Positions 19,278-19,988 of a DNA stretch of 64,000 nt are shown piece after piece; the stretch's first letter is position 1; each line of letters opens with the position of its first letter. The notes below the pieces were generated by a model. It had not been told where the DNA came from and did no database searches. It saw only the letters and a list, made by a program, of their open reading frames with translations. This DNA is from Octopus vulgaris (lineage: Eukaryota): positions 96,100,001-96,164,000 of the forward strand of contig OX597820.1 in the NCBI GenBank assembly GCA_951406725.2, in the 5' to 3' direction. A program made the position numbers and the translations under genes.

Positions 19278-19988
19278 TATTTACATTATTTACATCTGAC
19301 GGATATTTGTCCTCATCGTGTTTGTTGCTAACACAACGTTTCGGCTGATATACTCGCCAGCCTTCATCATGTGTCTTGGGTAAATATCTAGCCTGGGTTC
19401 TCATTCCTAGGGTATTTTTCGATGTTGTTGTTGTTGTTGTTGTTATTATTATTATTATTATTATTATTATTATTATTATTATTATTATTATTATTATTAC
19501 TATTATTATTATTATCATTATTATTATTACTATTATTATTATTATTATCCAGGTCAGTGCCTGGAATCGAACTCGAAATATTGGTGTTAGTAGCCCGCCC
19601 TCTTAACTACTACGCCATATGCCCGTGGGCAAGATTCCGAGTTCGATTCCAGACCTGAATAATAATAATAATAATAATAATAATAATAATAATAATAATA
19701 ATAATAATAATAATAATAATAATAATAATAATAATAATAATAATAATAAGAAGAAGAAGAAGAAGAAGAAGAAGAAGAAGAAGAAGAAGAAGAAGAAGAA
19801 GAAGAAGAAGGATGTTGATGATGATGATGATGATGATATTTGAAATTTCTCCAAGATACTCGATGAAGTCTAGAGGGTATATCAGCCGAAACGTTGTGTT
19901 AATAACAAACAAGATGAGGACAAATATCCGTCAAATATAAATAATGTAAATAATGTACATAATTCCTCATCTCTTAAATATAGAACTG
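19278..19988. mobile_element. tRNA-head/(AAT)n/HHR SINE-like element (family D), head-to-head pair with 13-bp TSD
   Basis: TSD aagtttatctgat at 19265-19277 and 19989-20001; A-box 19607-19617(-); B-boxes 19564-19574(-) and 19639-19650(+); mutated HHRs at 19330-19375(-) and 19855-19900(+). Confidence 0.8.

Follow-up and report, generated by a model that had tools for sequence, protein, structure and literature searches.

The unit formed by a tRNA-like head, an (AAT)n spacer and a tail with a hammerhead motif, present in the 64,000-nucleotide stretch of Octopus vulgaris DNA analysed here (the window), is the pseudo-LTR (pLTR) of an abundant, protein-coding retrotransposon of the Penelope/Poseidon type, and we regard this structural identification as secure. 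The locus at 19278–19988 is best explained as a two-armed, pLTR-only insertion of this Penelope-like element (PLE), with a tRNA-derived promoter at the 5′ end that likely sets the start of the transcript; in this explanation as a whole we have moderate confidence.

Structure of the locus and of the parent element

The insert (19278–19988) is flanked on both sides by an exact 13 bp TSD, aagtttatctgat, at 19265–19277 and 19989–20001 on the plus strand, and its left flank is single-copy in the genome. The part of this flank at 18490–19277 resembles decayed coding sequence, and we take a fragment at about 17300–18200 to be Mariner-like. Arm 1 (19278–19630, minus strand) is a complete pLTR running from the common 5′ site of the family to the short 3′ end, without the extension described below, and consists, in order on that strand, of the head (19550–19630), an (AAT)n(AAC)n spacer (19425–19549) and the tail (19424–19278). 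The head and tail are 92 and 93 % identical, respectively, to the family references, and the spacer is lengthened relative to a family median of 36–44 nt. The head, recognized as tRNA-Arg-like by alignment and by its boxes, begins at the G (19630) of a native TGCCC-AC-GGGCA palindrome, where 5′ ends of the family pile up, with an A box (19617–19607) 13 nt after this G and a B box (19574–19563) 43 nt past the A box. The tail includes the first 42 codons of the PLE ORF (19278–19404, minus strand), in a frame that is still open and that aligns with the N terminus of the homologue P0003, and a minimal type I hammerhead (19330–19375, minus strand) lies within this coding sequence. Arm 2 (19630–19988, plus strand) is an inverted pLTR that is 5′-truncated in mid-head and joined to arm 1 at 3 nt of microhomology; it contains (AAT)(AAG)(GAT) runs, lacks about 30 nt of the tail start, and reaches 34 nt deeper into the tail than arm 1. 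These 34 nt (19955–19988, plus strand) are the Penelope 'tail' extension, present in arm 2 only, and they continue into the ORF body in near-full-length copies. The first-pass annotation, made from the letters alone, had described the head with its A and B boxes, the (AAT)n run and the tail on the minus strand, the inverted and truncated second unit and the flanking duplication, all of which are as stated; it had also taken the AAT run for internal cargo, and the spacer indeed belongs to the pLTR, inside the TSD-flanked insert.

The proposed hammerhead tail needs some qualification, since the motif is there but both of its cores at this locus are mutated. In arm 1 the core reads AUGAUGA in place of CUGAUGA, and although stems I and II fold (z −2.35) the ribozyme is probably inactive because the first core base is changed from C to A; the hammerhead of arm 2, at about 19855–19900, is decayed. 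The core pattern is intact in 20 of 58 family tails, and the family has the features of the minimal type I hammerheads of PLEs, namely CUGANGA and GAAA cores with an extra base before stem II, a G10.1–C11.1 pair and a palindromic stem III (PMC4209133). Rfam gave no hammerhead match in the window or in one ORF-linked copy. Elsewhere in the window, a near-perfect long inverted repeat at 26250–26500 has arms with CTGATGA...GAAAC hammerhead-like cores and probably stems from another PLE family that inserted head to head; at 11231–11258 there is a further minimal core of hammerhead-like type, which differs in stem II and does not belong to the pLTR family.

The autonomous PLE sought as a source of the tail was found by way of the sequences flanking the unit. 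Among 53 head copies, two have a common sense-strand upstream sequence that translates as a GIY-YIG-type C terminus, and a genome search with this ORF end yielded 30 loci, 29 of which run on into the head while the thirtieth has a head deletion; at these loci the AAT run and tail come after the head. The order is thus ORF end, UTR, head, AAT, ATG, hammerhead, extension and rest of the ORF, the stop codon of the RT/GIY-YIG ORF lying about 30 nt upstream of the head. At the other end, the tail and extension pass straight into the ORF body in L130, L133, L136, L147 and L154, as they do in most of 30 further loci, and L344 comprises a tail, the entire 2,377-nt body and a second head, a full pLTR–ORF–head copy; in L344 and the tail–ORF copies the pLTR stands at both ends and contains the ORF start. 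That the tail is coding is also evident from the family N terminus, which aligns to P0003 across the hammerhead (49 % over 298 aa), and the ORF–head junction is bridged by contigs from four other organisms, which speaks against an assembly artefact. RT and endonuclease frames were found in the longer copies L122 and L123. The RVT_1 match to the ORF (E=1.2e-5) falls short of the curated cut-off, and a local Pfam search of the ORF gave no GIY-YIG match; 51 ORF homologues at E≤1e-20 have RT and PLE-type domains, and include coral, lizard and insect proteins. A cysteine insert in the linker is given as a mark of the Neptune-type clade (PMC8557442, partial text), and in our alignment it is absent from the family ORF and from Anolis P0027 and present in the Neptune-like L081. 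On this ground we file the family with Penelope/Poseidon, a clade assignment with which its ORF domains and pLTR, as judged from sequence, also agree.

A Neptune-like family was considered as the partner of the unit and rejected, since the 20 loci obtained by a GIY-YIG Pfam search are almost all Neptune-like and have ends unlike the tail. Many of these matches, together with L081:2245–4587, represent a young and abundant PLE of Neptune-like type whose 781-aa ORFs are intact and which also has an upstream ORF and 456-bp direct repeats. Decayed ORF fragments of Neptune-type PLEs were also detected by tblastn in the window, at 57834–58821 and 62587–62874.

The cassette had initially been read as a SINE mobilized by Penelope-like machinery. 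Mobilization of this kind stands, but the separate SINE does not, because the head, AAT run and tail follow the stop of an autonomous ORF and the tail runs into that ORF. The tRNA-related 5′ head with A and B boxes is as expected of a SINE2 element; the tail, however, is a piece of PLE coding sequence whose two ends are fixed, rather than a LINE-derived segment with an A-rich or simple-repeat end, and the autonomous element contains the whole unit, head included, whereas a distinct non-autonomous family would share only the 3′ tail. Nor is the inverted pair at 19278–19988 a tandem array of non-coding hammerhead monomers, as in non-LTR retrozymes. Short pLTR transcripts may nevertheless serve as SINE-like templates.

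Genomic copies and insertion signature

A second insertion of the pLTR family (46371–48114) has inverted arms with the extension on the left and the short end on the right, a degenerate 11-bp TSD, and an intact hammerhead core at 46504–46469. Recurrence of the design at this place had been noted before and is borne out, but the AAT run is interrupted by a secondary insertion, a 3′ LINE fragment (46778–47816, plus strand, from its translation) that we take from its motifs to be Dong/R4-like. The possibility that the tail might derive from the 3′ UTR of a LINE such as Dong can be set aside, as the tail does not match this fragment. At least two Dong/R4-like families repeatedly enter the AAT run of the pLTR and part head from tail, as here and in L056, L069, L070, L076, L077 and L114, so that PLE ends seed AAT runs that are later occupied by Dong-like LINEs.

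In the genome searched (2.8 Gb, 227 contigs), exact 20-mers of the tail, head start, ORF end and ORF N terminus occur 11,811, 691, 140 and 70 times, respectively; reversed-sequence controls for the tail and head 20-mers gave 0 matches, and the abundance is therefore not due to chance. Scaling by exact-match rates of 30/100, 5/45, 2/33 and 4/10, in the same order, puts the totals at roughly 39,000 tails, 6,000 head starts, 2,300 ORF ends and 175 N termini, the last three being imprecise. PLE ends thus account for tens of thousands of repeats that an annotation would probably list as SINEs. Head and tail are generally linked: when the 691 head-start matches were taken in order of position, 74 of the first 91 had a tail no more than 900 nt away.

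We pooled 72 distinct inverted pairs from head, tail, ORF and pattern searches, and 58 of them have one extended and one short end, a pattern already described for PLEs (PMC8557442; PMC3846280; partial texts). A TSD of 9–19 bp flanks 49 of these 58 pairs, compared with 57 of 567 flank swaps, and the insertion at 19278–19988 has the same signature. Formation of the second arm purely by fold-back was rejected: the two arms agree in most pairs, but 7 of 43 are A/T-discordant at a non-CpG site, in better accord with two priming events. For the anole element PAc, nicking and extension are described on each of the two strands, with reverse transcription beginning at two internal positions, which delimit the tail (PMC11167929). 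By analogy with PAc biochemistry, the octopus endonuclease would cut the two strands at positions some 12 nt from each other. Reverse transcription primed from each nick would begin at one or other of two internal sites, so that one end is short and the other extended, and the two cDNAs would meet head to head and be joined by fold-back or microhomology. Whatever polymerase is involved, the 58 of 72 pairs make this family genomic support for the two-nick, two-start model developed in the anole.

Among the 70 N-terminal copies, a few of them local duplicates, 48 end 64–169 nt past the extension, and most of these 48 jump back into the pLTR, 6 of them exactly to the head start, which suggests short templates beginning at the head. 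Short tandem derivatives made of the tail and the first 80–170 nt of the ORF are present in L285:1458–2315, L296:1458–2155 and L335; they are retrozyme-like, with a hammerhead in every unit, and some of their junctions recur at several loci.

The tRNA-like head as a candidate promoter

When the majority head was aligned with 27 distinct tRNA sequences from 30 genomic loci, the best scores were to tRNA-Arg(TCG/TCT) (64 and 61), followed by Ala (58) and Thr (57), and the head thus appears to derive from a tRNA-Arg-like sequence, with a modest margin over Ala and Thr. The call for a covariance-model check of the head was not answered in its favour, as neither ARAGORN nor Rfam gave a tRNA match for it in the window or in one ORF-linked copy; the likeness lies in the boxes and in the tRNA-Arg alignment. 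Among 21 related metagenome PLE loci with enough downstream DNA no tRNA head was found, the candidates being two B-box-like motifs that have no accompanying A box and lie 3′ of the hammerhead.

The 5′ ends of the copies are informative as to the possible function of the head. Of the 91 head-start copies, 53 end at most 5 nt from a position that precedes the A box by 13 nt, the other 38 extending 16–842 nt upstream into the UTR or ORF, and the stop rate at this site is about 26 times the upstream rate. Arm 1 of the 19278–19988 insertion begins at the same site, and in L280, a full-length copy and the only one inspected, the sequence begins at position 3 of the head. The 13-nt spacing between start and A box is similar to that of mammalian SINEs. 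A second feature is that the majority sequence of the UTR, head and ORF (about 2.5 kb from 84 fragments, with a single frame switch left at a stretch of As) is free of runs of four or more Ts (T4+), where 3.05 are expected from synonymous shuffling (P=0.02) and 4.4 from base shuffling (P=0.0095), this being a single test with P of about 0.01–0.02. By comparison, the Neptune-type ORF of this genome has 7–9 T4+ runs per 2.3 kb, and 78 related loci (a tally that omits L345) have 226 against 185 expected; the related headless family L355/L368 has no T4 in 2.0 kb of ORF, and its pLTR is T4-rich. Since the pLTR begins with a tRNA-derived promoter, the element is likely to be read by Pol III, and the 5′-end pile-up and the absence of T4 are compatible with such transcription, although they do not prove it. 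RNA reads from another organism cover the two strands symmetrically and follow copy number. An RNA made by Pol III has no cap and would not easily be translated, and autonomous elements are held by Kojima to need Pol II (PMC10886601, partial text).

The strongest competing explanation, which we consider rather unlikely, is that this is an ordinary Penelope pLTR with a passive tRNA or SINE relic captured in its 3′ UTR and transcribed by Pol II or by read-through, and that the pile-up arises by fold-back at the 5-bp palindrome. The pile-up site is indeed palindromic; among the 53 copies that start there, fold-back is clean in 23 and partial in several more, so that it affects at least 23. Adineta pLTRs without tRNA heads likewise begin with palindromes (PMC3846280, partial text), Penelope of D. 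virilis has a LINE-like internal promoter (PMC2377424, partial text), and the headless L355/L368 ORF is TTTT-free as well. However, many copies without fold-back begin at the same 0–5 nt, the start lies 13 nt before an intact A box that is followed 43 nt on by a B box, the full-length L280 also starts in the head, and T4 is lacking from UTR, head and ORF alike.

We consider it improbable that the ORF-less copies form a SINE lineage of their own, propagating itself with PLE enzymes supplied in trans. By rough estimates ORF-less copies far outnumber ORF-linked ones, and some internally deleted junctions are shared by several loci. Two subfamilies, A and B, are defined by two linked variants (P=7e-15), and the B alleles are commoner in ORF-less copies (15/40 versus 2/30, P=0.004; 13/40 versus 1/26, P=0.005). 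Yet B is also ORF-linked (6/27), and as both subfamilies have ORF-linked copies, subfamily alleles, divergence and spacer length disclosed no SINE-only lineage among the sampled copies, although a genome-wide tree could still show one. Divergence is alike in the two classes (5–7 % ORF-less, 6.5–8 % ORF-linked), AAT spacer length does not differ (P=0.73), and all parts of the unit are native to the autonomous element. Moreover, full-headed ORF-less arms are short-ended in 32 of 40 cases, compared with extended ends in 17 of 27 ORF-linked arms (P=0.0007), and lacking the extension they would probably be poor templates.

We therefore return to the two-armed pLTR insertion with a 5′ promoter. Template RNAs would be made by Pol III; most would apparently be short, ending 64–170 nt past the extension, and a cDNA that reached the 5′ end of the RNA would stop 13 nt before the A box, leaving an ORF-less, SINE-like copy such as arm 1. 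A bolder form of the idea, which we put forward tentatively, is that a coding Penelope acquired its promoter from a tRNA-Arg, cleared its whole 2.8-kb unit of Pol III terminators and came to be transcribed by Pol III, giving rise to thousands of SINE-like copies and to the birth of a SINE without a LINE. If Pol III does read the element, the same promoter would yield the SINE-like copies because reverse transcription starts internally, near the 5′ end of the RNA.

Comparison with known systems

The octopus family most closely resembles PAc of Anolis (PMC11167929) and Pen2a of Adineta (PMC3846280) in having an RT ORF with a C-terminal GIY-YIG domain and a pLTR with the ORF start and a hammerhead, the PAc ORF beginning inside the hammerhead, as well as in the inverted 5′-truncated arm, the 30–40-nt extension at one end, a TSD of about 9–15 bp, solo pLTRs and a 5′ palindrome. 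It departs from them at the 5′ end of the octopus pLTR, where a tRNA-derived head with A and B boxes is followed by an (AAT)n spacer; for Penelope, LINE-like or TATA/Inr-like promoters have been described.

Octopus SINEs named OK, OR1 and OR2, reportedly of tRNA-Arg origin, are said to have been described by Ohshima and Okada in 1994. They possibly have the same kind of head, and could be the donor of the head or an earlier description of the short copies; OR2 is listed as a CORE SINE. The short form may already be recorded as a SINE in repeat databases or by Ohshima and Okada. The literature searched, a scope that does not take in repeat databases, contained no PLE with a tRNA or Pol III promoter and no PLE-mobilized SINE, and no tRNA-headed pLTR appears in the partial text of the O. 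vulgaris repeat paper (PMC13282606) or in that of the preprint on animal retrozymes cited below.

Animal non-LTR retrozymes, which are PLE derivatives, likewise include non-autonomous hammerhead units related to pLTRs; they form tandem arrays, unlike the inverted pair at 19278–19988, and the words 'tRNA' and 'Pol III' do not occur in the main text of the preprint, as far as available (bioRxiv 10.64898/2026.07.22.740005). Schistosome Sm-alpha and Sj-alpha also combine a Pol III-type promoter with a hammerhead in a short repeat, but these are tandem and non-coding, with the promoter at the 3′ end after cleavage, while the octopus copies are paired in inverted orientation and carry their hammerhead within coding sequence (PMC6765202, partial text). 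A small-RNA-derived Pol III promoter in a terminal repeat is also found in the TRIMp3 elements Cassandra, Helenus and Ajax, where it is proposed to have arisen by SINE insertion; TRIMp3 elements are short, non-coding and LTR-dependent, whereas the octopus head sits in a coding PLE of about 2.8 kb (PMC10886601, partial text).

The architecture of the element is that of known PLEs, and it is the tRNA-Arg-like promoter at its 5′ end that looks new. To our knowledge, a need for Pol II has been ascribed to autonomous retrotransposons, and a tRNA head has counted as the mark of non-coding SINEs; if our reading is correct, a coding PLE that starts with a tRNA promoter blurs the line between coding elements and SINEs, and would be a case of a coding retroelement RNA made by Pol III.
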